DNA from: Fistulifera solaris
Taxonomy: Eukaryota
Length of the DNA stretch: 64,000 nucleotides
Direction of reading: 5' to 3'
NCBI GenBank assembly: GCA_030295235.1
Contig: AP026124.1
Span: forward strand, 744,001 to 808,000
Shown here: one piece after another, positions 2,302 through 61,845 of the stretch
How the letters are laid out: every line of letters begins with the position of its first letter
Numbering within the stretch: position 1 is the stretch's first letter
Notes under the pieces: model-generated
Seen by the model: only the letters and a program-made list of their open reading frames with translations
Told to the model about the DNA's origin: nothing
Databases searched by the model: none
Program-made: the position numbers and the translations under genes

Positions 2302-3946
2302 CTTAGTCGGTCGCTAGAAAATGAACCTGATTTACTACAATATCAAGAATCGCATTAATGCTTTTTCATGAATTTTCATCTCCAATATCGTTATAAGTGG
2401 CTTTTAGAGTTTGAATTTGATCGATATTGTCGGCTAGAGTGAAAGGGGCGACCGCAACAAAAGCGCCCTTATTATGCAATCCACATTATTGGGCGATAGT
2501 TCAGCGCGCAAGCAGAGCAGTGGACATTAAGCTTCTGCTTGTGCCGTCCAAAGACGAGTGTTAGTGTTAGCATCATGACACGTTATTATTGCATGAAAAC
2601 ACAAGGAAATGAGGTACGCAGAGAAAGGTTTCTAAAAGCAGAAGCAACTACCGGTACCCAATCGACAGCCCCCTAATCTTCGACTACATCATTTGTATAT
2701 CTCGATAGAGATGTGGTATACAGTTGAGCCTTGCAATTTATGATGCATTGCTCAAATCAACTACCTTTCTTTCGAACTCCCTCCAAATAACATCATCCAA
2801 CAAATAATAAACTTTGTTACCTAAATGGTTCTCAATAATAATAACGAGCTTACCTGTACCGGTACTCCATAAATTGGGTAATGGATACTGCTGTGACATG
2901 TGAATGACTTTCACGATTCACGTCTCCGTAGTAGGATACGATACCTGGTACAGCACCGTACCGGAAACCGGTAAGACTACAAAATTAACGACCGCGTACC
3001 TGGTACCTGGTACCAGTTACCGCAACTCAAATCCGGAACAACAAGTATGATCATTCTTGTTCAGTCATGGTTCAATGATAGCCGTCATTTGAACGTCCAG
3101 TATGAAGTATCAAGCATCTTATCAAAATTAGGACAAATTTCATTGATGCCGTAATGTCTTGTTCCACGTTGTACAAAAAGGATGAAACATGACATGTCAC
3201 ATGCTTCATGCTTCGGAGCTGTGAGTCTCGGAAATGCTACGTAGTACATGTTCATTCTTTATGATACTAAGTGACTAAACTAATACTGTACTTGCTTGCT
3301 TCCGAATTGCACTCGGTTAGCCCGTGCACTGTACGCTATACTCAATTGTAAGATATGTTTGATATTATTTGTACACGACTAATCTGTGCTACTCTCCGAA
3401 ACTTTGATTAATTGGACCGAATAATAAAAACAGTTTGATGTAAGAGAAGACCTTCTCCTGAGTAATCTTATCTTCCGATTGGTTTCGTGGAGATTCTACG
3501 AAATAATACGAACCAGTCGAGTTTAGGCACCATTCGATGGATCTCCTTTCATTGTACTCATTTTCGGATGACCGGTATTCGCCAACTTTATTGTTGTAGA
3601 TCTTATATCGCTGTAGCACGTCTCGAACAGGCAACCGTGAACACTCCTTTGTTCTCATTGGTCCAAAGTGAGCGTCTGAAGTGTGTCTGATACCAATCGT
3701 ACACGATGTGCGAATGAAATGCCGTTTCGTTCTCGGCATTTCTTCCCCGCCCCTACAAATTTAACCATATACACGTGACCCTTTTCGCCGCAATTCGGCT
3801 CCTTTCACCAGTTAATCCTCAACCGGTCGAAGACGGCATAATAATCGACGCAAGACCCAGCAACACCACAACAGCAACCACCTGCCGCAAAAATATTCAA
3901 TTGAACAGAAAATACGAGTAGTGCTTTCAATTAAATTAACACAACA

Positions 3947-5076
3947 ATGGACGACAACAATATCGATTTTTCATCAATGCACGATGGTGATTATGACGAA
4001 GAAGTCTACCGTCGCATCGGGGTAGCAGCTCCCAGTTTTGGTGCTACAACGTTCGAGCCATCCTCTCTGGACCCCGAAGCCCTATCTACACAAGCAAACA
4101 AAATTCTTCATCAAGCTTCGCCACCAGAAACGTTTCGCACTGGAGTTTGGTCAGTGACGGATGATCAGATCTCAGAATTGCCTGATTTATATCAACTAGA
4201 CCCGAGCGCTGTGTTCATTCCCGATGAGTCTCCCGAACAGATCACCGCGCGAATCAGCGGAGAGCTCCGTGACCGATCGATTGAAGCCGAATTTGACCAA
4301 GAGCACGCGAAGGCTACTTGCACGACCACAGAGGGCGTTGAATTTCGAATCAAGCTGTATCGTGGCCGAGGAAAGTTCAGCAATGGAACCATCGTAGAGG
4401 TTCAACGAAGGTTCGGCACCGCTGCCAACTTCCATGCAGACACATCTGCTATTCTCGACAGAGCTCGAGGAAAGCAAATTGCGAAAGCTACTTTACGAAG
4501 CGCGAAGGACGTTTTGCCTCTTGTAGCGGACCAAGAAGATGACTACCAACCGGACGGATCTTCTTCACTAAAGATGGTTGCCAAGATGTTGAACCAACCG
4601 GGATACGACTCTCATTTCCTTGCCCTGCAAACTCTCTCTTCACTCACGGACGTTCAAAAATGGGAACGACCACAGTAAAGAGCGTTGCAAAGGAGCTGAT
4701 CAAAGGGAACAATGAAGTGGGAAACAAGATTCTCTCCATGATTCTGAATACCAACGGCGAAGATGAGACATTCAAGCTTCGAACACTAGCCATGACTATT
4801 CTTGCCAACACTCTACAAGCCGTGAGTAAAGAAGAGATCTCGGATTCACTACGAGAGCAGCTTCAACCTGTCCTTCTTCGAGAACTTCGCGCGGCACAAA
4901 AGAACCAGCGAAATGCCGTTCAAGCTGCTAAATGTGTAGAGGCTCTGCTCACTGTTGAAGACAGTAGCTTCGCCGATTACGACGAGGCGTTGAAGATTGC
5001 AATGGAGGTCGGCCGAACAAGACACTTGGCTTTGGAGCGACAGGTTGAAAAGTGCTTCAAGAAGATTCTAGCATGA
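3947..5076 (+). CDS. Uncharacterised protein with a KA1-like domain and helical C-terminus; frameshift near 4658
   Basis: Two overlapping ORFs join at an A-run. EFRIKLYR...IVEVQRRFG..ANFH resembles the kinase-associated-1 fold signature. Confidence 0.6.
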
Positions 5077-5329
5077 GCTGACAGAGCAGATGCTCATTGT
5101 GTTTCATAGTTTCCGTTTGTAGTTGATACTAAAGTGTAAATTACGAACGATATCATTTCAAATTTGACGTGCAAGAAGTACACTTGTAAAACTAGTAATT
5201 CTAGCATGAGCTGACAGAGCAGATGCTCATTGTGTTTCATTGTTTCCGTTTGTAGTTGAAACTGAAGTGTAAATTACGAACGATATCATTTCAAATTTGA
5301 CGTGCAAGAAGTACACTTGTAAAACTAGT
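5065..5329. repeat. 132-bp tandem duplication spanning the stop codon and 3' UTR of the upstream gene
   Basis: 5065-5196 and 5198-5329 both read attctagcatgagctg...aaaactagt, with about 3 mismatches. Confidence 0.95.
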
Positions 5330-5390
5330 GGCATGATGAGCTGCGAATCAAGATAGATTTAGCGTCTCTAATGAATTAAGTAGGGTGTCG

Positions 5391-8601: not shown

Positions 8602-10450
8602 CTAGTTTGGGTGACCAGGAAGCGAACCGATCGCGCAGACATCCCATTTCGAACATCTCACCCAGCACTTTCTTAACGGCGTTTGACGGGCGTCGTAAGG
8701 TTCTTCTGCAGCGGCGGCTTTATCGCTCTCGACAAGCATACTGTTATTTTCGATGCTCTCTGCCAGTTGTGGTGTTCGCGTTGTGTCACAATTGTCGCCA
8801 AATAATAGCTCCTCCATTTCTTCAAGCGATAACGCTGCTGGCAAAATTGGTTTCGTTCCATCGTGACCAACCGCTTTGTCCTGGCTACTTTCCTGCATCA
8901 CAACCTCTTTCTCTGGAATGCATTTCGCACCAAAGTATCTGACACGTTCATCACCCAGCATATCTTGGAACAATTTTGCAAGGATATAGCTGGACGACGA
9001 CGGGTCAGTCAAACCGTCATCTTCGCAGCGGTCACATAAGCTATTCAAAGGGAGTTGAAGCGACCGCAACGAGCGGCAATGGATGGTATCGCCTGACTTG
9101 TAACATTTAAGTTCAGACCCTAGAATCGGAAACGTTTGCACGAGAGAATCTTTAGAAAGTAAGCAACGAACCCACTGTTCTAATAACGAAATCTTTGTGA
9201 CAAGATCGTCGCTACTGCTGCTGCTCTCTTGATCAATTGCTTCCATAGAAAGTAAAGCATCCATCAAGTGGACCAAAATGGTTGTTAGAAATCCCGGCCA
9301 TGCCCGGCATGCTGATTGTATCAAAGGCAAGTATCGCTGCTTAAGTAACTCAAAGCTATCGTCCACACCTTGATCATACGCTTCCGCAAATAAAACGCCA
9401 CCGACAATCATTTCATCGAAATCCGGGCCTTTCCAAATCAGATAGGAAAGTAATGCGTGTCGCAAAATATTCAAAGGCACATTTGCTTTGACAAACGCTT
9501 GTCCACACGAGGCACACGTCGATTTTCCCGATGCCAGTTGAATGATTTTGACGGCTTTCCGTGGCTTCTTTTGTATTTTCGCAACGGGTGGCTTTCGTTT
9601 TGGTCTTTTTCTTCTTTTCTTGCGTTTTCTTGGACGTAGATTGGAGGACGGCAAAACGATTGAACGAAGTACCCAGCTTTGATTGTTGAAAAGGGAATAA
9701 GAGCGCTTTCAGTTCTGTCTCCTCGAACTTTTCCTGTTTCCGATCTGGTGGTTCACTCTTGACAGAAGGCTTATCTTCGGGTAGTGTCACCGGTTCCTCG
9801 GTCTCAAACACATTTTGTAGCGCGGCCTTGTGATAAGCTTGCAATAATGAATTCGCGTCGTTCCAATGATCAAGCTTAGCTCTCGCAAGAGGATCCCAAT
9901 AAACCTGACGAAAGTAGTGCAACAACGATTTCGCGGATAGACGCAATACGGCCATTGACGGAAGTTGATTGTGCGTTGATTCGTGTCGAATGCCGACCAG
10001 CCACGAAGGAATACCGAGTTGCTGACACAAGACAGCGACACTCGCAGCGTTCACTCGCTGCTGCTGTAACACATCTGCCAGTCCATTGATGGCACGTAAA
10101 ATAGCACTCGAATAAGCTAGCCTCAATTCCGTCGACGATACGGTTGCCTGCATGTCTCGCAGAATGATCTGAGCTAAGGCTGCAGTTGACTCGATCGAAT
10201 GTGACATGGCATTCGTTCGTGACTTCCAGATATTCACCTGCTGCAACGCATCTTCCAGTCGTGCGATCACTGATGCTCTGTAGCTCTCAGTTTCAGGGGT
10301 GATAATCTGGTCGTTGCTTTGCAACAATTCCGGAGAAAGAAGTAGCGCTTCGCCCACTCGTTCAAATTCAAAAACGTCCCTCCACGGATTCAATCGTGCA
10401 TGTTCGCGAAGCCTCTCATTCCGTCGAAGTTCCTGTGCCGCATCCAGCAT
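8602..10450 (-). CDS. LAS1: Las1-like pre-rRNA processing HEPN endoribonuclease; frameshift around 9500-9650
   Basis: N-terminal PW motif, LRLAYSSAILRAING, IPSWLVGIRHESTH (HEPN RxxxxH), YW, and a C-terminal W..CAIGSLP. Confidence 0.8.
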
Positions 10451-10862
10451 TCTGACGCCGCAATGGAATGTTCGTATGGTTAATGGTTCCCCCGAATGGG
10501 TTTATTGGTTGTAATGAAGTATGAAGAATAAAATTGATGGTTTCGTTGTTAATAAGTAAGGCGGATGTCATATCCGGGTTGTCCCTGAATCGACAAGTTT
10601 CCTACGGCGACTACGCGAAAACCCCGTAGGGATTGCAAGCACATCAACTTTCGCTTTTCTCTTTGTTTGCGCTTGAAAACAAGCAAAATGGCAGATATCT
10701 ATCATGAAATGGAATACATTGGTGAAAGCAAATGTGATTCTCATGTTCATGAGACCCTATAATCAAAGAGCTATGACAGTATTGCTCTTTGTCTTTCAGA
10801 TCCGGGTTGCCCCTGTATCGATAAATTTCTCACCGGGTACTTGTACCAGTACCGGTACGGTA

Positions 10863-23974: not shown

Positions 23975-24372
23975 AATTTTTAAAAGGAAAACAAAGATTG
24001 TGCGGTGTTCTAAAGGACAAATGGCATTGAAAGTATACCAGGGCAATTTGTTATCACACCTCTTTCTTTGATGCATGTTCGGCATAAAATCGTCCGACGA
24101 CCGACGGCCAGGAGCGATTGCGGAATGAAGATACTTGTACTTGTAGACTTGTAGATGATACGCGATACCTGGTAAGAAGCGAAGGGCGAAGGTAGGCAGC
24201 GCAGCAGGACGAAGTATTTGCCGTTCGTCCTTCACCCGTTTCTCAACATCATTCGCCATCCGTTTGCTAATTTCACAGAAAATATTTTCATTCTTTCCAG
24301 TTATTATTGTTGGCATTGACGTTCAGGGCAACAATATCAGTACAATCCTACCACTTTGATCCGCCATTGAAC

Positions 24373-25759
24373 ATGTCCGACTACTCTTCTTCGTCCGATA
24401 GTGACGATGGCGAAAAAAGTTCGTATTTCGCTCAAACTTTCAGCGAGTTGCAACCAGCACGACTTGGAAGTATCGTCGGAACCAGTCGCCGTTCCGGTCG
24501 ATGTGACACGCAGAGGACTTTCTGCCATCATCAATCATTTGCTGGATCGGAAACAAGCGGAGCCGAAAGAAGAAGACGAAGACGATGACAGTAGTAAATT
24601 GCCTTCCTTGAATTTTGATTTCATTTTGGGGTCGAGCAATAAATTGTTGCGAACTTCGGTGGGAAGAGAAGCCCGTCGTCAGGGGCACAATTTCGAACAA
24701 GCCATTACTATTACGTACTTTCCTTCACAACCGGCACCCGAAGATCAAGGAGAAAGTGAACCGATGCCGGATTGGATTGGGGCCTTGTCGGCGGTATCCG
24801 GAATGGTCTTTGCGGGATGTTATGACGGTTCTTTGCAAGTTCTGCATGAAGAAACGATGGAGCCTTTAGTGCCGCGCGTCTTTTCTCATACAGGAGCCAT
24901 CAAATGTATTTCATCTGTAGCACGCGATGATGATTCGTATTACGTGGCGACAGGATCTATGGATCATTCCCTCTCGGTGCAACTCTATCAAGACCAAGCA
25001 TTGCAACAAGTGGCGTCGTGTATAGAAGGTCACAATGCGGCAATATCAAGTGCTGATTTCGGCAGCAGTTCTCAGCTAGCAAGTGGAGATTGGGGCGGTG
25101 AACTGTATCTTTGGAATTTAAATCAAGACATCTCAGAACAGGCGACCGTGAAAAAGGCCAAGAAAGACAAAAGCAGTGAAACAGCTAGTCATTTTCGCTC
25201 TTTAACACCCACTGGCTCCATGAAAGCACATTCCTCGCAAATCACTGGTATTGCGTGGAACAGTTCGGATCAAATGATAACAGGTAGCTGGGACCATAGT
25301 ATCAAAGTGTGGAATGTGGAACGCCAAGATTGTTTGCTAACGCTGAACAGTTCCCGCGTGGTCACCTGTTTAGACGCCTCTCGGGTCTCGGCGGCATTAG
25401 CCACGGGACATCCCGATTGCACAGTCCGTCTTTGGGATGTCCGCACGAAATCCGAAACATCGTCCTGGTCCGTGTCCGACAACACCTTCCGTCCCAGTCA
25501 CAAAGCATGGGTCTCCGCGGTGCAGTGGTTCGATGCTTACCAATTGGTGACAACGAGTCATGATGGTATGGTGAAATGGTGGGACATTCGATCGTCTCTT
25601 CCGTTGCATTCGATACGCGCGTTTTCTAAAAACAAGGGCCTCGCACTGTCGACCACATCTTCGGCCATTTACGTGGGTGGGACGGACAATCGAGTGAAAC
25701 GATTACAAATACCGCAAAGTGGTATGGATGTACATGAAAAAGGAATCGCTAAACAATAA
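24373..25759 (+). CDS. YTM1: Ribosome biogenesis protein Ytm1/WDR12 (NLE domain + WD40); start at 24373 via an A-run indel, or at 24407
   Basis: PVAVP...GLSAIINHLL...FDF NLE domain, PDWI, and several WD40 repeats (GSWDHSIKVWN, HPDCTVRLWD). Confidence 0.88.
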
Positions 25760-46850: not shown

Positions 46851-47141
46851 TGATGACTACCTACATAGTACGTAGTACACATCAACACACAATGCTCGTA
46901 CTGGTGGACAGACGGTTTTGCTGGCCTATGATGATCGTGACTGAAATTCAGTCGCGGTCGATTCAAACCAACAATAACAACCTACCACTACAGCAAGGAG
47001 AAAATAAATACGGAGTATAAGTAAAGTGAACCGGTAATAGTCGTTACGGAAGTACAAGTACCGGTAGCCTTACAAAAAGCAATGCAGCATGGCCCTCCGT
47101 CATCGGGGAAACAAACTTAAATTTTAGTTTAAACAAAGAAT

Positions 47142-48184
47142 TTATACTTCTGCACCCGTTTTGGCGTCAACACATTTGGCATTAGGCAATCCTCGACAGC
47201 ATACCGTACAACAGCTGCATTGGACTTCCGGATTCGGTCCTAAGCAATCCACAATCAGGCTTTCCAGTTTAAGATTACAAATCGCTTGTGGAACACTACC
47301 CACGAGGTTGTTATCGTGTAAATCAAGGACACGAAGCTTCTTCAGCTTTCCTAGCTCTGCTGGAATTGTACCAGTTAAGAAGTTGGCGTACATGTCTATG
47401 ACCTCGAGATCTTTCAAGCTCGCCAACTCCTTGCCAGGTAGAGTGCCAGCAAAGTAATTTCCGAACAAACGTAGCTCCCTGAGCTTTCGCAAACCCGCAA
47501 TTTCTCTATGCAAATTACCAAAAAAGCCGTTCATATGCAACTCTAGAATCTCCAAATTTCGTAGACCATCCACGATCTTGTAGGGCAACACGCCCTGGAA
47601 ATCGTTCGCATGCATGTCTAGCTCCTTTAATTGGTCAAGCAAGTACAATTCACGCGGTAAAATTCCGTCCAGCTTTAAATAGCCCAACGCTAGCTTTTTA
47701 ATTTTCTTTCCAATCGGAGTACACTTCACACCATACCAGTTGCATTCGTGATGTTTGTGACTCATCCAATGTCCTTTGGCAGCTTCGGCACCAGGTTCGT
47801 CGACGGCCATGAACCAGTCCCATGATGTTGAGTTTGACTTGGTCGAGGCGAAATGCAAAACCGACAATGCGTAGCGCTGAAGAAAAAAGACTTCTTGATC
47901 TTCCCTTGGACTGCCGCCGATCTTGGTATAAGATCCAGCATGCCGCTTGATGCTGGGCACTCGAACTCAAGAGTAGCGACTGTTTACCAGTGGCCTCTAC
48001 TAACCACTTAAGTTCGGTCTTCTGACGGGAGGAGGAGATCGGATTGCGTTTGTCGCACATGTAGAGCAAGTCATCCGTCAATACCACCGGATCCTTCTTG
48101 ACTTTCTGACGCGCCTCCGTCAGCAAAAAGAAAAAAAGTAATTAGGACAGTTAATGCAAACGGCGTTCGAATAGAAAGCTTCAT
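47142..48184 (-). CDS. Secreted leucine-rich-repeat protein (diatom LRR family); frameshifts near 48130 and 47960
   Basis: Signal-like MKLSIRTPFALTVLITFF, QRYALSVLHF, CNWYGVKC cap, plant-type LRRs (LTGTIPAELGKLKKL), C-terminal CSCCTVC. Confidence 0.8.
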
Positions 48185-48546
48185 TTTATCCAATTCTGTA
48201 TCTTGATAGGCGACAAATGAGTTGCTTGAAGTCGATCAACACAATTGTCATCCGATCAGCGTGCAACGCCGGGTGCAAGGTGGAACTTGAATGATGTGTT
48301 GGCTCATAACCCAGTCTCCGACCGCAGGACAGAAGTGCGGCGCGCGTCAACGAACAGGTCCTCCCATGTTGTCTCATACTAATTACGTCGGGTGGATTTA
48401 ACATTAAGATGTTTCCCCAGTCGGTCTCGTTTGCGCGATCTGTACTTAAGAAAAAAATGAATTGACGTTTGACATTTAAGTGAATGTTGCGCGAGCATGC
48501 TTTCAAAATATATGGACGTGCAGCGCTCCTTTGAAACCTTCTCTAA

Positions 48547-51500
48547 CCGATATCCGATCACCCCCCTGATATCCCATATGGGATATCAGTACCGGTCAGA
48601 AACTGTAATTATACCTGGTACTGTTTCTACGCAAATGTACTAATGATGCTATGAAATCATGGATCTTAAGTTATAAACCTTTGCAAAACTAACATATCAT
48701 TGGTTGTTTCCATTGAAAGTCACCGAATAGTGAGTTGACTATATATAGATTACTAATTTTAATTTTTTTTCTTTCCTCTGTTGTTTGTTGTTGTCTGCAT
48801 CTTCTTGTAATGGGCAAGTGTCAACTGTCTCACATCCTCATTTTTATGAGCCTCACTGAAGCAATCGTGATCACTCTTACCATTGAAAACAGAACAAAGG
48901 GGAATTCCACAAGTTTCACATCTGTACCTTGACCTACTGTCCTTTCCTTGAATGGAACAATAGGCACATTTGGATCTCTGGTCATTAGGAATCTTCTCAG
49001 CCCTATGTCCTGCCATTGCCACATTCGGTTCATTTCCAGACATCTCTCCTGCAAGACTGGAGATTAGTTTTCCTTTGAACTCCACAATATTTGTTGGCTT
49101 ATAATCATTGACTCTTTGCTTCTGTGACTCGTTGTACAAGACAAGAGCATTAGAAGTCCCAACATCCAGCAAATAGAAGAAGAGTTTTAACCACCAACGA
49201 CTTAGTCCCATCACCGTCGAAGTTACAGTGCAACCGGCGCATATCCGCCAAGTCAACACCCCCATGTATTTGTTGTAGTGTGCAATTGAGATTGGTCTTG
49301 GGACTGTAACAATCCCACCTTGCACTCTTCGGCGACACTCATCGAAGTCATGATTATTGCTGTCATTCGAAAGGCAGTAAACCATTTTACTGTCTTTCCA
49401 ACACACCAGACCAGCATAGAAGACCCCACCACTTCCATCATTCATCTTTAAGCGAAACTTAATAGCATCTCCTCTTTTCATGGACTTAAACACCGGTGAA
49501 TTCTTGGCTAGTCGCACATCTTTTGGTAGTCTGTTTGCAACAACGGTCCCCGTCACATAGATATCATTTTTTTTCAGCGCCTTCATCAGATCAACTGATG
49601 TATAGAACCGATCCACATAAACAGTTCTGTGAGTACCAAAGAATGGGCTCACCAGCTTCTCAACTACCTGAACAGTTTTCTTTTGTTGACTTCATCTGAT
49701 TCATGTTCGCCCGTAGGTCGCTTTTCCGGTGTAAACAAGAACACGAAGGACATATGCTGTTTCAGCATCAGTCAACACATATACTTTGATCCCGTACCGT
49801 GCTGACTTAGAAATGATGCGCACTTTGAACTTCATCCTTCCAAATGCACGAATGAGAGTCTCATCAAGTGACAATTGTTGGCCAGGTGAAAATAATCTGG
49901 AAAAGCGGTCTTCCAGGTAGTCCCGTACTTCTGCTATCTTATAGGCTGGATCATAATTGTCTCCTGTTGGTTGATTGGTTACAGAGCAACAGTGAAGAAA
50001 TCGAAGCATCTTGTGGAATTTTCGCCCACTCATAATGTTTTTTGCAGCCTGACATTCAAGGTATGGATCGTCTGAGAACCAGTTTGATGGCTTGTCTTTT
50101 CGCTTTTGGATACTCATAAGGAATAACACCGCAATGAATTGCTCCAGATCATGCCGTGTAACATCCTTCCAATCTTTTGATCGTAGCTTTCCGTATTCGT
50201 TCGTATGAAACACTATTCTATCAAGTAGTGTTTTCTTGAAAATTTCCCTCCAGGCACGAATCGGTGTGTTGACATCAATGGGACTGCACAACAGACCCGT
50301 TATAACTCGTTCGCTCCTGCCAACTGTTGTGTGGTGGATCCGGAAACTTTCCATTGGATTCGGCTCCATAGCCTGGAAGATGACATCCTTTTCCCAAGAA
50401 TCCCCAAGAGGCTGCGTTTGATTATTGACTTCATCAATCAATTCATCAGTGAATTCTTCCCGACTTTGCTTTCTTCATCAGAAGAAACTTCCTCCTCCCT
50501 CCAGTCGTCAGGCAGATCCAGTGTCAATGTGGTGGGAGCTTCCAATGCATTCGGATGTAACAAGAACAAGCAACTCAGACGAATTGACCAAAAGTGCTGA
50601 AAGCGAAATACACGGACTGTTGACTGCACATCTGACCAAGCACGATGCGCTTGGTCAGGGTTTTCACCAGTGACATATTGAAAAAGAGAACCAAGGTTGT
50701 AAGCTGGCGGTGCTGCCAAATTTCTTTGAGAGACAGCTTTTTTTGCCATTTCTATCGTGGTCGATAGCAAACCCAAACCTATGATCTTCAAGGATATGAT
50801 GTTCAAGATTGTATCTTTTCAATTCAGAAAGCAAGAAAGGAACATCAAACCGTTTCCCATTGTGCTTAACGAGGACGATGTGATCAACACGAATGTCGGA
50901 TTCTGATGCACATTTTTGCATTAAATGGATGAAATCTCTTGCAACAACTGGGAACAATGGAGAATTCTTAACCATATCATTGGTTATTCCAGTCAATGCA
51001 ATGATTTCATCCGAAATCATCTTGCTTGGATGGATAAGTTCGCTGAATTGGCCATCTTCGACTTGAATACCGGATGGATTCAAAATCTGTGCCGACAATT
51101 CAATGATTTCGTGAAACTTTTTGAAAATCCAGTGGTCTCCAAATCAAATACAACATAAAGAATATGTTGCCAGTTAAGTATAGGAGGGAATCGAGGAACA
51201 AAAGCAGGCATGGGGAGGTGTTGGTGGTGCCACAATAACATCATTTTGATGTACGGTCGTGTCAGGCACTGAATTTTGGGCTGGTAAACGGTTTCGCGCA
51301 GGACAATTCCGTTTGTCATGACCTTCGGCTTTTGCAAAGGCCACACTTTCGTTTTTTTTGGTTGTTGTTGTTGATCATTATCAACCAGATTTGCAGGAGA
51401 CGCCATGGTGATCGAGATATTGGAATGAGAAAAAGGGCCTTGTGTGGGTGACAGACAGAGCAAAAAGTGCCGACGAGGTGCTCGATATAGCAGATAATAG

Positions 51501-51676
51501 GATTTGCAATGTCTGCCTAATTTAAAAACAAATTTCAGAACCAATTTACTTAAATAACAAGGATTACAATATCAAAATGGGGATTTCGAAAGTTAAACAG
51601 AGATTAAGTTAGGTAACGAAATCTTCGCTAAAATGGGGTATGATATCCCAAATGGGATATCATGACCGGATATGGG
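48547..51676 (-). mobile_element. Full-length piggyBac-superfamily DNA transposon (3130 bp) with CTAA target-site duplication
   Basis: 14-bp TIRs CCGATATCCGATCA and reverse complement CCCATATCCGGTCA (2 mismatches). A 22-bp palindrome TGATATCCCAWATGGGATATCA lies near each end. CTAA at 48543-48546 and 51677-51680; internal transposase. Confidence 0.9.
48759..51406 (-). CDS. DEDDh exonuclease-piggyBac transposase fusion (~880 aa after correcting six homopolymer indels)
   Basis: Exonuclease motifs VFDLETTG, HNGKRFD and HRAWSD; transposase motifs LSLDET, YGIK, VYVDRFYTS, WKD, YNKYMGGVDLAD and RWW; C-terminal CAYC...CETC.IPLC...CF..AH domain. Confidence 0.8.
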
Positions 51677-51765
51677 CTAAAATCTTTTCTCGATGTGACG
51701 ATTTGTTGTCGCACACAATCGCATCTTCTTGTTGTTTGGAATACTAGGAGAACACTGAGGTTAAA

Positions 51766-54700
51766 ATGATGAAAACACCCACAAAGTCCAGACTCTCTTC
51801 GAGTCCATTGTCTACTTTCTCGCCGAACAAGCTCTTCGGCTTGAAGCAGTCACCCGATCCTCCTGGTAAAGGTAGTGATACTCGCAAATCAGCAGCAAGT
51901 GATTCGAAAGTGAAATTTTCTCCACTTAAGAAAGTGATTACTTCACTTGATTCAAGAGATTGTTTGGGAGACTCGGTTAGGCTTCTACAAAGTAATCTCG
52001 AAGAAGCACGACTTGATAACATTTCGGACCATCTGGACCAAGCAGCCAGAGATGATTTTGCGAATGATGGACAAGACGAAAACAAAGACACTGCTTGGCT
52101 TCTGAATATGTTCAAGAGCTTAGAGAAGAAGCATTCAGATGACAAGTCTGATTGGGATAAGCAGCTGCAACAAGAGAGAAAGAGCAAGTCGTCCTACAAA
52201 AACAAACTCACTAACGCGTACAAGGAAAAACTGACATGGCTCGAAAACCAGCTACAGAAAGTAGGCGAGACTCACTGCGCGGTCAGCAGAGATGTTGTTT
52301 ACAGTGAAGGCAAAACTTTGCATGAAGCTTCAAGTGGAGAATCTTCTGGGACGGCGAGCACCTCGAGTAACAGTCAACGCTGCGGAGGCGGAACACAAAA
52401 CAGTTCCCCTGCCGTTGGCGAGAAAAGCTCGATGTCGACAATATTATCACCCGATTCAGTCCGCAGGGTTCAACTTTTAGAGCAGACGTTGAATGACACA
52501 CTGCGGCAGTATGAGTCTGATCGTGCCGTATGGGTCAAAGCGCTGGAGGAAGCAGCAGCCGTCACCCAGGCCGGTGAGCAACTTTCATCCTACCAGGAAC
52601 AGCTTTTGTCTGACTTGAAAAAGCAGTTAGCGGAAGAACAGAAACAACATAAGAAGAAGTGGAAAGAACAGAATAATGTATTGAAGAACTTGCTCACTTT
52701 GACTGAAACTCAGTTTCAGCATGAGAGGCAAGAGTGGGAGCGACGGGCTAGTGAATATGAACGCACCATCGAAAAACAAAATCAACTCGCTTGTGAAGCC
52801 CAGGAAAGGTTAAAACTCGATCTAAGCGAGATCACAAAGGAAAATATATCCCTCCAGGATGAAAAATCGAGCATGGAAGAGACTTTGGCGAAGATGCAGG
52901 AAGAAAAAAGCAGTGATGAGCCGACAGGTCAAGCAGCTTCAGAAAAATCTAATGGAGACACCGGGTAGTCGCGGCAATGCAGTAAGCGGAAGTCGTTTTC
53001 AAGCGCTCTCTCCTTCTCGACGAACAGATTGGGATGATAGACTCGACCGCGCGATGGTCGAAAGGGACTTGTACAAACAGGAAGCTAGTCAAGCTGCGAA
53101 GAATCTCGAAGTCGAGAGGAAGAAATGGGAAGAGCACTCTGAAGAAGCATTGAAGGCTGAACGTAGAGATGCTGCCGATCGACTAGAAGCGGAGCGAAAA
53201 ATATGGGAGGAAAAGATTGAGGCTAAAGAGAAAGAATGTGTAGAAATTCGAAACGGATGGGAAGCCGAGAGACAGCAATGGGCTGAAAAACAGGAAAACC
53301 TGGTAAAGGAGTGGGAAGAGGAAACACGAAACCAAATCGAGGAGCTTCAAAAAATCCATGCAGCCGAGTTGAGTGAAATGCAGTCTTCGGACGACGAACT
53401 CGCAGAAAATTACAGAGAGGCTCTTGAAAAGAAGAATGAACTTGTTTTGCGCTTAAGAAGAATGGAGCAGCAACGCAGTGAAGAGAAGGGCACGTGGAAG
53501 CTACAACTTGAAGGGGCTCTTTCAGAGTCGCGGAGGGGTGCCTTGACTGTGCAGCAATTAAAAAAAGAGATTGCCGAAGAGCGAAGACGTCGGTCAGAAG
53601 AAACCGAGTTATTGCGCGATGAGCTGTCCCACACGCGACTTCTTCTCTCCAGTAAGACCATCCATGATGCTCAGCCTAGTGGTATAACAGAGCATGTTAT
53701 GAAGCTTCATGAAGAGCTCGAAAAAGCCAGAGAAGGCACCGAATGTCAACTGGCAATGTTGCGCGAAAGTCACGCTCGAGATATTCATCGACTAACAAGC
53801 GAACTTGAAATACTTGAATCGCAAAACGGAGCGCTTGTTGTCGAGCTGAAACGACAGCAAAAGATCAGGAATGAAGTAAACGAGGACGAGCTTACTCTGA
53901 AAAAGTCACAAGAAAATCAATCGTTGGAGCATTGCTTAGCTATACAGGAAAAAGAAGAGGAAGTCAACAAATTAAAATCGAAACTTGAAGATGCAGAACA
54001 ATTTCGAGAAAAAATAGAGCAGGATTCGATCTATCTGGCGGAAAAACTAGATGCGGCACGCAAAGATGCAAAACAATTCGAAGATAAGTTGAAAGACGCC
54101 AACGAAGAACACTTCAAAAATACCCAGGAATATGCTGTCCAATTGCAAGCTGTACAAGAAGATTTGTGTAAAGCAAATGAAGACAAACAAGAAATTGAGC
54201 AACAGGTGGCTGCTGTAACGATAGAGAACAGGAAGCTTGTGGAACAGAACCTGGAATTGACTGGGATAATCGACAACCTAAAGCAGAAAATGGAAACGCT
54301 GGTGAGCGTATTGTCGTCCGACATAGAAACGGTCGAAGGGCGACCTTTTGAGCCTAACTCGATGTCTCCCACTGAAGCCCTTTCAACCCTCGAAAAATTT
54401 ATTTATTCACTGGCGTCCCGCCATAGCATGATTAAAGAAAGTCTTGAGCTTAGAGTTGAAATACTTTCTGCCGAGAACGACAAGCTTAGATTAGGCGAGA
54501 AAACCAGTACTTCAAGGCTCGAAAACGCCTTAGAGGAACTTCGACAGGACATCATCTCAATCAGATATATGATGGAGGCAACGCGAAAAACTGACCAGAT
54601 TTTGGAAGAATCAAGTTTTGACATTTTACGAGCGAATCTGGAGCAAATCCAAAACAACCTTGATGACGTCGCAGGTGAAGCGGCACTTCAGACCGAATCG

Positions 54701-55641
54701 TTCTACGAGTTCCGGAAATTAGCAGAGAATCATTTTACGGGAGCCGAAAGTAATAAAGACGATAAAACTTCTGTCGAGTTTCAGCATAATATATTGTCAG
54801 AAATGGCCATTCTCCGAGACGGCCTAGCAAAGATCATCAAGAATCAGAGCGAAGAACTACAACAACCAAAGAGAGAATTAGAAAAAGTTAGAGAAGAATT
54901 AAAAGAGGAAAGAACGAGACGCCAAAAAGCGAGGCTGACATAGCAACTCTGAACGAGCAAGCAAGTGCATACACTGACGAATTGATGCATTTACAGGCCG
55001 AAAATGCGAAACTGGAAGTACTTCTCCAGGAAGCGGAAGCGAAAGCAAACTACGCATTAACATGCCAACCGCAACATACAAACGAGGAAGATTCTCTGGC
55101 TTCTGAACACGTAAGCTTTGGGCGCGCGGCGTCGTACTCAGGAGATTCAACTCTCCTCGACGAAGCTTTGGCGTTAGCGCAAGGTCTCAGTGATTTCGTC
55201 CAAGGAAACAATAATAATGAACATGAAGTCAATGTCTTGGAAATTATGGAGAACCTGGCAGGAATGATTGATAAACAAGACAAATCTGACAACGCATCAA
55301 TGCCACGCCTTGAGATAAGCTACCCGAGAGAAAATGTATCAGCCTTTATCCAAAAGACTAACAATGTGTCTCGCCAGTCAATGTCTACCGAAGATCCGAA
55401 ACTGTCTGTATTCGTTGAACAACTTTACGGCCGATGCCAGTTACTTGAACGTGAAAGGTTAGAGATGATGGAATTGACTCTGGATCTCTTGGAATCTACG
55501 CGACGATCAGGGAAGGCGGAGGTAGAAGCTGCGTTATCAATCGCGAGGCGACGAATTGCAGACGATTTCAAAAGGATGCGAGACGAAAACTCTGCCACAC
55601 GAGAAGATCTGTATCACAAAATTTGTTCGGGTCACGACTGA
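51766..55641 (+). CDS. Large coiled-coil protein; frameshifts near 52905 and 54930
   Basis: Three consecutive E/K/Q-rich heptad ORFs on the same strand, apparently joined by single-base frameshifts. Confidence 0.7.
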
Positions 55642-55699: not shown

Positions 55700-58600
55700 C
55701 TAATAATTGCTCATCATTTCAGACAAATTTTTAAACGCTACCTGGGCAGCAGCCTGCCGTTGCCTGTCTTTTGCTATAAACGAGTAGTTACCAGTGGCAA
55801 CAACCATCGTGTGTCCGTGCTGGTCAGACAGCAGGCGAACGAAAAGAGTACCTGATCTATGAACAAACTGGCGCCCTAAGACCGATGTTCGACGATTTCC
55901 CAAATCGAATTCGTCAAATTTGATGCATTTGAGAATAGATTTTGCATCCGTGTAAAATACGCCGTCGTGGATAAAGTCCATCCCCATCAATTTCCTATCA
56001 ATATTGCTAGCTCTCTTTTGTCTTTCACCAAGAAAATTTCAGGGGCGCGAAACGGATTTAGGAATACATTCCTGGATACGGTTATTTGCGGGAAAGGCTT
56101 CAAGTCCAACCCGTATTGCGTACATCGTCGTTGCAGCAATTGAATTTGGTTGTCTACCTTCCCCGAACTCGCTACAAGCCAATGTAACATTATTCTGTAT
56201 GACCAAGAAGTGTCAAGCGTAGAGTCAATGACGACTTCCATCCACTCTAAAGCGTCTCGTTTATTTTTCCGTAGGTCAACGTAAAATCGCTCCATCGAAT
56301 TGCGAGCGATACCCGGGGTAGACGAAACTTGATCGGTTTCTGTTTCAATTTTATCCGCTTTTTTCACGATTTTTACATTCAAGTCCGTCGTCTGAGAATC
56401 GTCCTTCTCCCTAAGTTTGTTTAGATATTCAAGTAGACGGTGAAATTTATCCAAATACTCCTGCTCAGCGGCATCACTATCAATTTTGGGAGGCACCAAT
56501 CCAAACATAATCCTCCTGAATCGCATCCCTTCTCGCATTTCTCGGTCGTCATCGCCGCAAATTATTCGGTCAACTTTGTTCCATATGTAAGGCCGGTTGT
56601 ATTTATTAAAAGTTTGAGTGACTTTTTTATACTGCTTGGTTTCAGTGCAAAAACAAAGATACTGGTATTGTACGGTGTTGGATTGAGAGCTCTGTGCCGT
56701 CTTTAAATCATAGCGTGTGACTTCGATGATATCAGTCCCCTTATCATAAGTGAGCACTTGTAAACGATGACCCATGGATAGGAACTGACGCATAGTCTCA
56801 GAATTCTCATCAGAAATTGAAGAGTGTGGGTAACCTCTATTCGCGAGTCCGTCTCGAAGCGTTTCACGCCTCAGATTACTCGCATTTACGTGTGACGGAG
56901 GTACAAGCTGGTAATCTTGAATGAGTCGTTGTCGAACCATTTCCATGAGAAGATCCTTGTTAGAGGAGTAAAAGGTCTTGTCAAACTCTTTCAGGGTAAT
57001 GTTATGGATACTGAATGTGAAGGCATGATCAACTTCACTTTGTGTCGGAAAGTATCCTACATATGTCGGTAGAATCGCGGGTGCGGTCAGGCTTTTCCAG
57101 TTAGGCCCCGTCCGCCGTCGGAATTCTAACTCGCCTGCTGGAAACACATGGCTCCAACGTCGACGATTATGCGAGTTTTTGGCTAAAACCTCATCTTCGT
57201 CCTGTTGACGAAATGGGTTGAACGCTTTCTTTCTTTTCGAACTGTATGCATTTTTACCTTTTGAACCGGTGTCGCGATAGTTCGGTCGATGAGATGAAGA
57301 AGTGATGCGGTTGTTTCCGACGATCATTTGTGAACCAGTAGGTGGACTCGAGGGAAGACCGTTAAAACCACTAGAACCAGACCCAGATCCAAATCCTTTT
57401 CCAATGTGTGCGTTATTCAGTCTAGACTCAATAGCAGTGAGACTACCAACGATTGGTCCCTGGGTGGCAGATATTGTAAAGTTAGATCCTTCTGTATGAA
57501 AGAACCCGAACCTAGATCCACTTGCTTCTGCTGTGATGTCCCTTCGCCCCGAAATTGGTGCCGGTGGTAGTAATAGCGGAGATAGTCCCACCGGAGCGCT
57601 CTCCCAAAATGCCTTGGAATTCGAGCCGAAGAAAAGAGAGATCCACTACTTGTCCCTTGTCCAAGGTAAGACGACTCCTTCTCAGCCTCTGTCCTAGAAA
57701 CAGATGACGCCCGATATTGTGCGAGGGCACCTCCTATCCCTCCAGGTACACCGCTGCCCTGACTAGCTATCGTTCGCCTCTGACCAGAAAACACCCCCAT
57801 TCCAGATATCGGAAGGTGCTTTGGACCATTCCGATTCGTATTTAATTCAGCACAAGCAACAATCGGTTCTGTTAGAGGAACAAGCTCCGGCGACACGGTA
57901 ACCCGAGAAGAAAGGGCGTCTCTAGATTTCATCATCAACCGCAGATTCTGGAAAATATCAGAGCTACCATCTTCACCTTCCTCATTTTCTCGAGTAACGA
58001 TGATTTTATTCTCGTGGCGGGTACGTTCAAAGTCAAGAGACGGGCATCGCTGTATCTGTCCGTGTGGAGAAAGGAAAGACTGATCGAACGACGCTCCAAG
58101 CAAATGGTTGGATATCTGGCTTGCAAAACTGGAAGACTGACTAGATTTTTCGTGAATGTCAAGCTCCTCTTGTTTTGTCGGACTTGCGATGATTGGAGCG
58201 GAACGCGATGTCGACTCAAAAGATTCATTCCCGATAGATACCTTTCGGTGATTCATAGTCGATAATTCGCCAGCCGACGCGGGCTTCGATTCCAAAGCAC
58301 CCCATTCTACTGGAGTTGATCCGTCATCATCACTGTCCACTGTAGAAATTTCGTCGCGTTCCTTTTCAGCAACAGAATTGCTCTGCATATCCAACAAAGC
58401 CCTTAAAGGCGATGGCAAAGTTCCGGTATTACGTGGTCGACATGCCTCTAGAATGTCATAGAAATCGCGACCTGCGATTAGCTGTCGTTCTTGTGTAAGG
58501 TGCGGAGGCTTTCTGGGAGATGAAGTACCATTTAATGCGACGGAGAACGACTTGGGACGAAGCAAGGGGCTGCTATTCAGCTGTAGCGCAACTTCCTCCT

Positions 58601-61051
58601 TAGGACGAGGTAGTAAAAATCCGTTTGGAGCCACAGAAAGATTGGTCGGTCTGACGGCGCTAGAGTCATGGGTAAATTCAGTTTTCTGCCTTGGCCTCCC
58701 AAAGCATCTGAATCGCCGTCATAGCTCGCAAAAGAAAGATTCATCCAATGGGGTACCTCGTAGAAAGTTCCCGACCCATCGACACTCTCAGGATCGACGT
58801 CCTGATAAAGATTGACGTAAAGAAAAAATGGAGCAGTATGTAGAGGGGGGAGACCAAGGGAAAGCATGTCGGAACCAATTCCATTGTCCATCATTCGTTG
58901 GTAGGAAATACCAGCGAGTCCTTTGTCAACTTCGAAAACACCATTACCTGCTGATATGACAACAATACTATTTCCGGTCCTATGAAGGTCTCTGTCAAGG
59001 TAGTGATATTGAAGTAAATTAAGTGTCACATTGATCGCTTCCAATACATTTCCTTGGCTTGCAGAAGATGGCCGCCTGGACTGGGATCCCGACTCCAGGT
59101 TCCATTGCACCTCGATAGGATAACGAACAAACGCTTCCTTAACACTAACAATGAATGTCTCCCAATCGGAAGGATTCTCGTGCTCGATAACTAGTCGAAA
59201 GTGATCTTCGTACTGTCGACCGTATATATCCCTGTTGATGTCCTCATCAAGCTCTTTCTCATTTGCAAAGGGACTTCCAGAATCTCCCACAAACGTTCGG
59301 CTGAAGAAAATAACAGTTACAGAATGAGTGGTATCCAGTTCTTTCCACTTTGCAAAAAGCTGGTGCAATATATCAATCAGTCTATCGAAATATATTTCAC
59401 AGCGACTCAAAGGACGATTACTTTCAAAAGGAGAAGAGTATTCCCACATTTCGCGGGACATTTGCACCAACCACATAATTCGCGCAGATCGAGACCGAAA
59501 CGTGATAGTTGTTGCCTCTGTTACGATTCCCGAACGCGCCAGCTTGTCCCTATGTCGAATTTCTTGTGCGTAAGCTTGGAATCCTCTCGTTGGTTCAAGT
59601 AAACGTTGTCCCTCATAGATCCAACTCCCAATCAAAGTCTCTTGAAATACATGCATGTCCCCTCTCGATATGAATTGATCCTTTATCGTAACCACCACGA
59701 AATCCGCCGAAACGGTGTCCAAAACCAATGCTTTGTCGTGCTCATTGATTTTACTGATCGTCACAATATCATAGCTAGATAACTCATAGAGATCCGCCAC
59801 ACGACGTAAAATAGAAACCTGCGTGCGTGCTGAGCCTTTCAAAGAAGTTAGTGACTTCTCCGTGACTTTCATCACAAACGACATGCGTAAATTGTGGGTG
59901 CTCGATATTTGCGTCCAGATATCATCGTCCACTTCAAAGTCATCGTCCAAATCTTCACTTCCCGTCCCCAAGTTGCCAGCCGGTGGTAGTTGCCCCGACC
60001 ACCCAGTCTGGTTGGATTGCAAAGTGCCGAGTGCTGTTTCTACCGTCATGTCCGAAATTTCTCGTTTATGGTGAGACTTCAAAATGCTTCGACTGGGCTT
60101 GGTCGTCGGCGTCCCAGTACTACCACCGCCACTTACGAGAGGCTTGGTAGTACGGGGATAATCAGCGGTTGATGTGCGGGCTCTCGGAAAGACGGGAGGC
60201 ATTCTGCCTCCTGGAGGCATATTCAAAGATGTGACGACCGTTTTGGTGGGAGGAGGAGGTGTGTCAGGAGTTGTTCCATCCGTAGAAGCGAGTGAAGCCA
60301 TAATTTGTTTGGAAGTCTTCGGCGAGTTCGATGGAGACGAAGGTGCGTCATAGCGGGTGTTATCTCTCGATGAAGTCGTCGACACTGTCTCCATATGATT
60401 CATGGTTTGCTCTCTCATAGTTGCTTTGGTTCCAACGCTATCTTGCTCCTCGTCCGCATGCTCCGAATACTGCAAGGAATTGACAACCGACAGTGTTGTT
60501 CTGGCTTTTATATCAGCGATTTCTTCCGAGAAAGGATCTACAGCTTCGATGTTGACGAGTTCCGAATTGTCCTTCGACGGCGATCGCTTATTGTTCTCGA
60601 CAGAGCCAGAAGCGGTGCTATTATTGTCCGTCGGCGTGACGCTTTGCGGTACGCTTGTGACCGGGCCGGATGATGCAGGATTGCGGCGTATAATGCTAGC
60701 GGCATTTGAAATGATGCGGTTCGAGGGAATAGCAGCGCTGTTGTTGATCGATGACGCCCCAACTTTGTTATTGTTCATTTGTGCTGGGTTCGGATCCCAA
60801 ATTCTGACTTCAATGAGATCTCCCACTTCCAGTTTTCTATAAGAAGATGCAGGTGCGGCTGAATCATCATGAGACGCATTGTTCGCGGAATTCTTCGAGT
60901 TGCTCCCCATCGAAAGCGTGTGTAGGGCAGCTCCATGAGGATCTTGGTTCGCACCGGGTGTATTGAAAATGTCGGGATGGACGCATATTTCCGTCCCATC
61001 AAAAGCAAGAGCCTCGTGCACGTTTAAAGAAATCAAACCGGATGTTAACAT
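55700..61051 (-). CDS. DEPDC5: GATOR1 subunit DEPDC5/Iml1; frameshifts near 58640, 57590 and 55995
   Basis: KDQFISRGDM, FRSRSAR...QMSREMW, QGNVLEAIN, RDLHRTG, PPLHTAPFF, NRRRWSHVFP, WKSLTAPAILP, LSMGH. Confidence 0.9.
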
Positions 61052-61845
61052 GTGGAAAGGAATGTCTCATGCTAAATGAACAGTTTATTTCTTGTGAAAG
61101 AATTCTGGACAAGTATTTTGCATCGCAATCAATGGAGTGCCAAGGGGGGGAGGGGGGGGGGGGGGGGGGCAGAAAGATCAACATTAAGGAGAGGGATTAC
61201 GGGGTCTTGCGCGGTGCGGGAAAAAGATGACGACACTTAATTAGAACCGATTTCGTAATGCAATGTATTGCCTAAAATTGGACCGTAATAAAACAACTTT
61301 AATATCGACACGTTTGCAGAACGTTTGAAGGTTGATAAGACTACTCGTAGATACCAGGTACTAGGTACTGATAGCAGTCGGACTGGCTTGGTCGATACTT
61401 GGTTGGTAATGGATTCATGATGATGATTCATGAATATCAAATCAAAAGTCTTAACGACATTGCGAATCGATATGTGTCTTGCCAACGCTGTCGAACATAA
61501 CTGGATTGTATGCAAAACAATTGAGTCCCAAAACGCTTGCAGAACGGATGTAGGTTGGGTAGGCGTTTGGTTCGGAAGTATGTTGACTCATGACTCAAAT
61601 GCAGTCGTGGGGGAATACGGTCAACACTTTGGGTATATAGTGAAAATAAAAAATGTGAACCTTAATAAACCATCTGAAGAACCTTAAAAAATTTAAAACA
61701 ACGATGACTCACCAGTTTAATCAACGTTAGGAGTCGATACGCGTGTTGAAAAAGTTGCCTAGAATAATAAGGGCCGTAATAAAACCATTGTAACATGATA
61801 ATAAGATTGCAGAACGAACGGAGGTTCGGCAGCAGTCTGACCCCG

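Follow-up and report, generated by a model that had tools for sequence, protein, structure and literature searches.

A piggyBac-superfamily transposon of the diatom Fistulifera solaris with a CCHC knuckle and a DEDDh exonuclease ahead of its transposase core

Can a piggyBac transposase carry a 3'-5' exonuclease of its own, and is the gene that seems to do so in the diatom Fistulifera solaris whole or broken? The question is raised by a stretch of 64,000 nucleotides of this genome (contig AP026124.1 of assembly GCA_030295235.1, positions 744,001 to 808,000, hereafter the window), in which a first-pass annotation made from the letters alone had described an exonuclease-transposase interrupted by frame breaks. 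Our analysis indicates that positions 48547-51676, on the minus strand, probably hold a complete autonomous DNA transposon of the piggyBac superfamily, whose 881-aa transposase is interrupted in the window by homopolymer assembly errors; of the identity of the element and of its intactness we are highly confident. The element is 3.13 kb long, has one gene (51406-48759) and is present in a single copy within the window, as judged by tblastn with the proteins P0007 and P0079. Its features, including the terminal inverted repeats (TIRs), are as follows.

48543-48546, minus strand: target-site duplication on the 3' side, TTAG on the minus strand, the same as 51677-51680
48547-48560, minus strand: 3' TIR of 14 nt, the reverse complement of CCGATATCCGATCA, sharing 12 of its 14 bases with the 5' TIR
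48561-48566: C6 spacer, inward of the 3' TIR
48567-48588: subterminal 22-nt palindrome TGATATCCCATATGGGATATCA of the 3' end, from an inverted-repeat scan
48759-51406, minus strand: transposase gene, 881 aa after correction, with ten breaks in the window
48846-48968, minus strand: C-terminal Cys-rich domain, C813 C816 C829 C832 C837 C848 H853
49145-50267, minus strand: piggyBac DDD core (DDE_Tnp_1_7), D514 D598 D671, from Pfam and a profile match
50400-50549, minus strand: acidic linker, predicted to be disordered, 33% D+E over residues 284-335
50550-51165, minus strand: DEDDh 3'-5' exonuclease domain, D87 E89 H181/D187 H253 D258, from RNase_T, profile and fold
51303-51345, minus strand: CCHC zinc knuckle, C21-x2-C-x4-H-x4-C34, matching KRRKCGACKGDGHDRRNCPA of Nitzschia P0079 and split over frames
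51641-51662: subterminal 22-nt palindrome of the 5' end, from an inverted-repeat scan
51663-51676, minus strand: 5' TIR of 14 nt, CCCATATCCGGTCA, placed by comparison with related elements
51677-51680, minus strand: target-site duplication on the 5' side, TTAG

The corrected protein is built, in this order, of a CCHC knuckle, a DEDDh exonuclease, an acidic linker, a piggyBac DDD core and a Cys-rich tail. All the parts that the first-pass annotation had described are found on the minus strand where it had put them, as seen from the Pfam domains, the motifs FDLETTG, HNGKRFD and HRAWSD, the acidic linker and the Cys-rich tail; its N-terminal layout was right about the exonuclease but missed the knuckle, which is hidden by three compensating indels (51352, 51327 and 51212) that make the frame of the ATG seem unbroken. 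Pfam places RNase_T (PF00929) in 50664-51143 (E 2.3e-12), and DDE_Tnp_1_7 (PF13843, cut-off 22.4 bits) in 49701-50474 (E 1.2e-37, 130.4 bits) and again in 48759-49691 (E 4.7e-20, 72.6 bits), the two matches jointly covering profile positions 1-348 of 349; four of the seven window pieces given to Pfam returned no family. To read residue conservation, 64 relatives with lengths of 800-1000 aa were lined up with the corrected open reading frame (ORF). D87 and E89 of ExoI are the same residue in 63 of them, H181 and D187 of ExoII are kept in 59 and in all 64, and H253 and D258 of ExoIII are kept in every one. The piggyBac triad D514, D598 and D671, which we take to be that of the Trichoplusia ni enzyme from its motif context (LSLDE, DRFYTS, WKD), is kept in 64, 63 and 63 of these relatives. 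The YNKYMGGVDLAD motif is present in the corrected ORF, a Cys/His ladder occupies residues 813-853, and in P0007 the residues C812, C815, C828, C831, C836, C847 and H852 are invariant in 37 relatives.

In 36 of the 64 relatives, a knuckle (C21, C24, H29 and C34 in the corrected ORF) precedes ExoI. Among the 28 that lack it, 23 have at most 51 residues ahead of ExoI, and in these the gene calls probably start too late. Pfam sees the knuckle weakly, with zf-CCHC_6 at E 8.8e-4 in P0128, under the cut-off. Structure models agree with this layout: the AlphaFold2 (AF2) model of the knuckle-exonuclease of P0123, a protein 39-63% identical to the other rows of alignment A1 and modelled in place of the window protein, has a mean predicted local distance difference test score (pLDDT) of 82.2, above 90 over residues 110-310, while the full-length AF2 model of P0007 (mean pLDDT 78.7, predicted template modelling score 0.53) is made of two well-folded parts joined by a linker, residues 290-324, with pLDDT below 50.

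How can a frame with so many breaks be read as one gene? The intact Nitzschia relative, aligned to the window by tblastn, requires more than six breaks: its N-terminal stretch KRRKCGACKGDGHDRRNCPA has its counterpart in two further frames of the window, and the window stretch GRT*IR*SQQKK has two in-frame stops. Four public sequencing runs were aligned over 47000-53200: X1, which carries the same organism label as the best-matching run and may be the source sample of the window's assembly, and the soil metagenomes X2-X4, X2 coming from a study independent of X1; no RNA run was among the matching runs listed in the public run search. Over the element, three X1 contigs depart from the window in seven substitutions and in 1-bp indels at exactly ten sites, and every listed X1 contig that spans a break site has the indel difference, none having the window's version. 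With the ten indels applied by script, a single frame of 881 aa stays open between the ATG at 51406 and the stop at 48759. The six frame breaks that had been counted before are thus all matched by 1-bp differences in X1 (51117, 50759, 50458, 49710, 49258 and 49220), to which the reads add four more (51352, 51327, 51212 and 49680). The rest of that earlier description holds well: the extra base in X1 at 50458 joins the linker as had been foreseen for one base near 50460; there is no true nonsense codon, the two TGA codons that stand in frame in the uncorrected window being made by frameshift and flanked by the 49710/49680 pair; and the result is the single intact exonuclease-transposase of about 880 aa that had been proposed, starting at the same ATG. 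Introns were considered as the cause of the frame changes and rejected, every break being closed by a 1-bp change seen in the reads. In one place, 48985-49043, just upstream of the Cys-rich domain, an X4 contig has 24 other letters for 57 nt, a length variant of this region in a related copy.

The fusion of the two domains is found well beyond this locus. A search with the transposase piece, among proteins of 451-2000 aa at E<=1e-3, gave 124 matches (best E 5e-105), far beyond what chance would allow; 120 of them are listed, and the domain content of these 120 was scored with hidden Markov models built from alignment A2. Exonuclease and transposase are both present in 98 of the 120; the remaining 22 have no exonuclease match, and most of them begin within or shortly ahead of the transposase core. 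Relatives that hold both domains in a single ORF are numerous, with lengths of 803-1048 aa. We also built a FastTree phylogeny of 90 near-complete transposase parts and the window, rooted on the sole distant match, P0121, and omitting the 30 of the 120 rows whose transposase parts are incomplete. There, 13 sequences without exonuclease (12 when the outgroup P0121 is left aside) are scattered singly among exonuclease-bearing sisters, a pattern that suggests gene calls cut short or losses that came later, with the fusion apparently ancestral to the clade. A point against our overall reading is the existence of some proteins with a complete piggyBac N-terminus and no exonuclease (P0043, P0103, P0074). 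P0043, a 608-aa protein encoded by an MMETSP transcript and with no exonuclease match, is nested beside the exonuclease-bearing P0036; either its transcript or ORF has been cut short, or it is a derivative that lacks the exonuclease and is expressed. Identity among clade members falls to about 32%, with the active-site residues of the exonuclease kept.

Many of these proteins are in public databases under misleading names, which qualifies the earlier claim that the lineage is undescribed, although it stands for the literature searched. Members from Nitzschia inconspicua are named 'PolC-type DNA polymerase III', 'DNA-directed DNA polymerase' or 'exonuclease', and others 'DNA polymerase III epsilon subunit-like'; the 885-aa P0049, on a contig of 3883 nt, is filed as 'MAG: exonuclease domain-containing protein [Nodosilinea sp.]' (MAG, metagenome-assembled genome), and its place under a cyanobacterium is probably a binning error. 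The architecture is common in diatom-like environmental DNA. Many metagenome contigs with members are roughly as long as the element itself, at 3.1-3.9 kb, and a metagenome scan gave 23 loci, six of them with unbroken ORFs of 872-928 aa. The viral contigs gave 20 pattern matches and no confirmed one. In a prokaryotic genome collection there were 32 loci of 23-37% identity, matching from residue 280 onward only, and none bears the exonuclease. Of these distant piggyBac-like loci (L025-L055), 16 of the 32 are in one 'Nitrospirales bacterium' MAG with contigs of 0.4-2.8 Mb and eight are in a 'Stappiaceae bacterium' assembly with dozens of 'chromosomes', Poribacteria and Nitrosopumilaceae MAGs contributing others; such bacterially labelled loci look like eukaryotic host DNA under wrong names.

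We consider that the ten breaks are most likely errors of the assembly and not decay, because differences of the same kind occur outside the element and repair a host gene. On the flank, one X1 contig free of substitutions shows two gaps, of which one falls in an A7 run at 48131. At 52904, within an A6 run, X1 differs by 1 bp, and with this change the host ORFs 51748-52968 and 52826-54943 become a single open stretch of 1064 aa. As had been suggested before, the differences are of the homopolymer type, all ten lying within runs of 2-8 identical bases. The opposite reading, that the window copy is truly frameshifted and dead and that the intact version in X1 comes from paralogues elsewhere in the genome, has some points in its favour: X1 depth is 68-93 over the element and about 30 in the flanks, that is, 2-3 times higher, and loose contig ends lead to other contexts, which points to merged copies, and there are the seven substitutions between the X1 contigs and the window. 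Several further observations weigh against our interpretation. X1 is possibly the window's own source sample and hence not fully independent; its contigs merge two to three copies, the interior of the window locus being inseparable from its paralogues, and therefore the window copy could be broken while others are intact; X2, which has three of its four covered indels in common with X1 (49220, 49258 and 49680), does not have the deletion at 49710 and shows a substitution at 49712 there; and ten indels in a 3.1-kb element compare with at least two in about 3 kb of flanks, so that the rates may differ. Still, a dead copy is very unlikely in our judgement. All ten differences are 1-bp homopolymer changes with no nonsense substitution among them, and the window's version is absent from the listed X1 contigs. 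Neutral decay gives more substitutions than indels, whereas here the indels, ten in number, exceed the seven substitutions. Like differences are seen in the single-copy host flanks on otherwise identical contigs, with the host gene repaired, and in at least five cases two long host ORFs on the same strand overlap out of frame with each other, a run of at least A5/T5 lying within four of these overlaps. It is harder still to believe that exonuclease and transposase are separate genes, an assembly chimera or a host gene fragment captured by one copy. The two domains do lie in different frames in the window, but they come into one frame with the single base that X1 adds at 50458. Both domains are matched completely within a single ORF in 64 relatives, 746-1048 aa long, and the six metagenome loci keep their ORFs unbroken; we regard such a separation as extremely improbable. 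The assembly as a whole seems to have homopolymer indels throughout, and its gene models will be fragmented. Host ORFs in overlapping frames are seen at the coiled-coil gene at 51748-55641 (plus strand), the IML1/DEPDC5 gene at 55987-61066 (minus strand) and the Las1 gene at 8602-10501 (minus strand).

The ends of the element are also those of a piggyBac. The TIRs, placed directly outside the 22-nt arms by comparison with related elements, fit the piggyBac pattern 5'-CCC/CCG ... GGG/CGG-3', and the internal repeats are asymmetric, the palindrome being directly next to the TIR (0 nt) at the 5' end and 6 nt away from it at the 3' end. The two 22-nt arms are 95% complementary to each other and each is itself a palindrome; we propose these subterminal palindromes, from their sequence, as candidate binding sites of the transposase. 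Contigs of X1, X3 and X4 cease to match the window at 48544 and at 51676-51682, and the loose contig ends at 48539/48544 and 51676-51682 correspond to other insertion contexts. At the right end, four of these contexts keep matching through 51680-51682, and at the left end two begin to match at 48544, preceded by T. Among the run contigs aligned over 47000-53200, none has an empty-site joint that skips the element. The F. solaris element has probably been active recently.

The target-site duplication, examined in five elements, is TTAG on both sides of the window copy, versus the TTAA of the piggyBac definition. In related elements, whose ends were read by eye (a strict pattern search of six loci recovered only L002 and L006), TTAA is followed by CC[CG] TIRs. 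TTAA stands on both sides of L002 and L006 and on the 5' side of L003 and of L005; the other side of L003 has ATAA. These flanks do not favour the earlier idea that the exonuclease serves to trim ends at non-TTAA targets, though the window copy does stand at TTAG. A C5-6 spacer after the 3' TIR is also present in L002, L003 and L005, and palindromes of the ..ATCCCA..TGGGAT.. type lie inside both ends of L002, L003, L005 and L006. The L002 element (1229-5349) is about 4.1 kb long; its 872-aa ORF ends at 4119, leaving about 1.2 kb more before the 3' TIR and TTAA, which lie at the end of the contig.

Where does the exonuclease come from, and on what would it act? The 159-aa exonuclease piece of the window was searched with HMMER against 1.84 billion representatives and gave 260 proteins at E<=1e-3, the best being fragments or members of the diatom piggyBac-DEDDh family, and no match at E<=1e-30. 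The weaker matches are ordinary RNase_T domains, which stand by themselves or in fusions with GIY-YIG, BRCT or MutS. With a word-based search among longer proteins, only a Selaginella MutS-exonuclease fusion was found, which is uninformative. A captured host PolC or DnaQ gene was considered and rejected, with just those 260 matches in 1.84 billion and the best of them all belonging to the family. When the family profile was compared with the PDB, the N-terminal exonuclease of DinG (1.8e-19) and that of PolC (2.2e-18) came out best, followed by epsilon (1.8e-10) and TREX2 (3.8e-10), and also by Cas2-DEDDh (5e-8). By fold, Foldseek with the P0123 model found as closest Plex9.1, a TREX1 homologue (1.2e-11), and nearby the DnaQ domain of S. 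thermophilus, TREX1, PolC and DinG; for TREX1-like, DnaQ, PolC and DinG structures the probability is 1.00 and E is 1e-11 to 1e-9. The nearest characterised relatives of the exonuclease thus act on DNA, and a DNA substrate is what profile and model would predict.

The transposase part has clear counterparts. It is like T. ni piggyBac (6x67/6x68) and piggyBat (9c0f) in its DDE_Tnp_1_7 core, DDD triad, YNxxMGGVD motif and Cys-rich C-terminus, and the family profile matches piggyBat 9c0f at 2.8e-46 and T. ni piggyBac 6x67 at 5e-38. As in canonical piggyBac, there are short CC[CG] TIRs, asymmetric ends with internal repeats, an acidic region before the core and a single ORF, and the relatives of the element have TTAA flanks. 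In contrast with canonical piggyBac, the diatom protein has about 300 extra N-terminal residues with the CCHC knuckle and the DEDDh exonuclease, and the window copy stands at TTAG instead of TTAA; the solved piggyBac transposases, of 578-594 aa, align only from profile position 333-412 on. A DEDDh exonuclease tethered to an integrase machine is likewise known in Cas2-DEDDh and Cas2-DnaQ (8fy9, 8h18/8h2f), third and fourth by fold. Cas2-DEDDh trims 3' overhangs before Cas1 integration. This system is prokaryotic and has the exonuclease fused to Cas2, not to a DDE transposase, so that the analogy is functional only.

Among eukaryotic transposons, KolobokD elements are described as DDD/E cut-and-paste elements with TTAA duplications and a DEDDh exonuclease like TREX, ERI1 and exuperantia, which their authors propose to degrade DNA intermediates, starting at the 3' end (PMC9587614). 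Set against the available sections of that description, the diatom element has only the idea of an accessory exonuclease in common with them: KolobokD belongs to a different superfamily (Kolobok, with RR/YY termini) and is reported there from molluscs, arthropods and cnidarians, not from diatoms (PMC9587614), while the diatom transposase is, by Pfam and profile, of the piggyBac and not of the Kolobok type. A DnaQ-like 3'-5' exonuclease within a DDE transposase has also been described in Dada elements, including those of the stramenopile Ectocarpus, and was proposed to process cleaved 3' ends; in the account available it is of the DEDDy and not the DEDDh type, in yet another superfamily, which targets small-RNA genes (PMC3706591). 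From Phaeodactylum tricornutum and Thalassiosira pseudonana, an element 'weakly related to piggyBac' is mentioned in the accessible part of one report (PMC2806351). In the literature searched (full text, with Repbase, Dfam, subscription journals and supplements lying outside), we found no piggyBac with a DEDDh, DnaQ or RNase_T domain. The principle of an exonuclease-transposase is therefore known from KolobokD and Dada, and the piggyBac version with a knuckle, which could not be found in print, is apparently new.

What could an exonuclease do in a piggyBac transposase? The piggyBac transposase nicks, forms and opens hairpins at the ends of the element, and integrates at TTAA. We propose that the transposase part of the diatom protein would cut and paste the element in the usual piggyBac manner at TTAA-like sites, that the Cys-rich tail would bind the subterminal palindromes, and that the knuckle-exonuclease, on its flexible acidic tether, may trim DNA 3' ends that arise at the transpososome, namely those that are recessed or frayed where transposon hairpins have been opened, at donor flanks or at joints of strand transfer. 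By analogy with the systems above, a role of the knuckle-exonuclease in DNA 3'-end processing during transposition is a tentative proposal, for which we would claim somewhat less than an even chance. That it is an obligatory part of the transposition chemistry of the clade, processing the 3' ends of the element or the donor or target joints, is more doubtful. If it were, this would be a change to the 'seamless, synthesis-free' piggyBac pathway, for example through a tolerance of mismatched flanks like TTAG, or through an altered donor repair favouring copy gain, and the clade would be a mechanistically distinct piggyBac branch that embodies a recurrent solution, also reached by Kolobok and Dada.

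Two other roles have been weighed against this 3'-end processing. The knuckle-exonuclease could act on RNA, as an ERI-1-like exoribonuclease that degrades host small RNAs and blunts RNAi silencing. CCHC knuckles often bind single-stranded RNA, the flexible linker would let the module act apart from the transpososome, and the RNA-acting ERI1 (1.2e-9), with the ERI1 family, and RNase T (about 1e-8 to 1e-6) are also significant in the profile search. These matches speak against a substrate of DNA, and it should be said that activity on DNA and not on RNA, as well as a need for it in transposition, are predictions from sequence. DNA exonucleases, however, match better than the RNA enzymes by 9-10 orders of magnitude in E-value, the best folds are TREX1-like, DnaQ, PolC and DinG, Pfam-type domain scans found no SAP or other ERI1 accessory domain, and a counter-silencing factor needs no fusion to the transposase in every member; an RNA role is in our view quite unlikely. 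A TREX1-like role, in which the enzyme would destroy excised, unintegrated or nicked transposon DNA and so limit damage signalling or toxicity, had been suggested in the first-pass annotation, and TREX1 and its homologue are the top folds; TREX enzymes are reported, in the part of the KolobokD study available, to degrade L1 retrotransposition intermediates (PMC9587614). But the fusion is in cis and has been kept, with its catalytic residues unchanged, all through a deep clade, which is easier to reconcile with work at the transpososome than with a diffusible enzyme that cleans up, and we think disposal of transposon DNA unlikely as its function.

The setting of the element is that of an ordinary diatom genome. 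The host ORF at 24371-25759 is 100% identical to Fistulifera solaris YTM1, its next named matches being from other diatoms at 41-48%, and the surrounding genes are of ordinary eukaryotic kinds: Las1, SET, WD40/NLE, a CSC1-like channel, Nup54, lipin and IML1/DEPDC5. X1 contigs of the flank come in pairs (47400-47763 and 47847-48175), with 0 differences in one contig versus about 26-34 per 330-360 nt or so in the other, which fits two diverged haplotypes or subgenomes. In the soil metagenomes X2-X4, pieces of the element are present, and almost nothing of the flanks.

What does this element mean for the piggyBac superfamily and for diatoms? piggyBac is a much-used tool of genome engineering, defined by the precision with which it excises and integrates without DNA synthesis; a large natural clade with a knuckle and an exonuclease that looks catalytically intact raises the question of which ends need trimming. 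The gain of exonucleases by DDE transposases in at least three superfamilies (piggyBac, Kolobok and Dada) suggests a general, unexplained need. Dozens of members filed as 'PolC-type DNA polymerase III' and the like mislead diatom annotation and metagenome binning. Finally, an element with apparently recent activity in an oleaginous diatom could serve diatom genetics.

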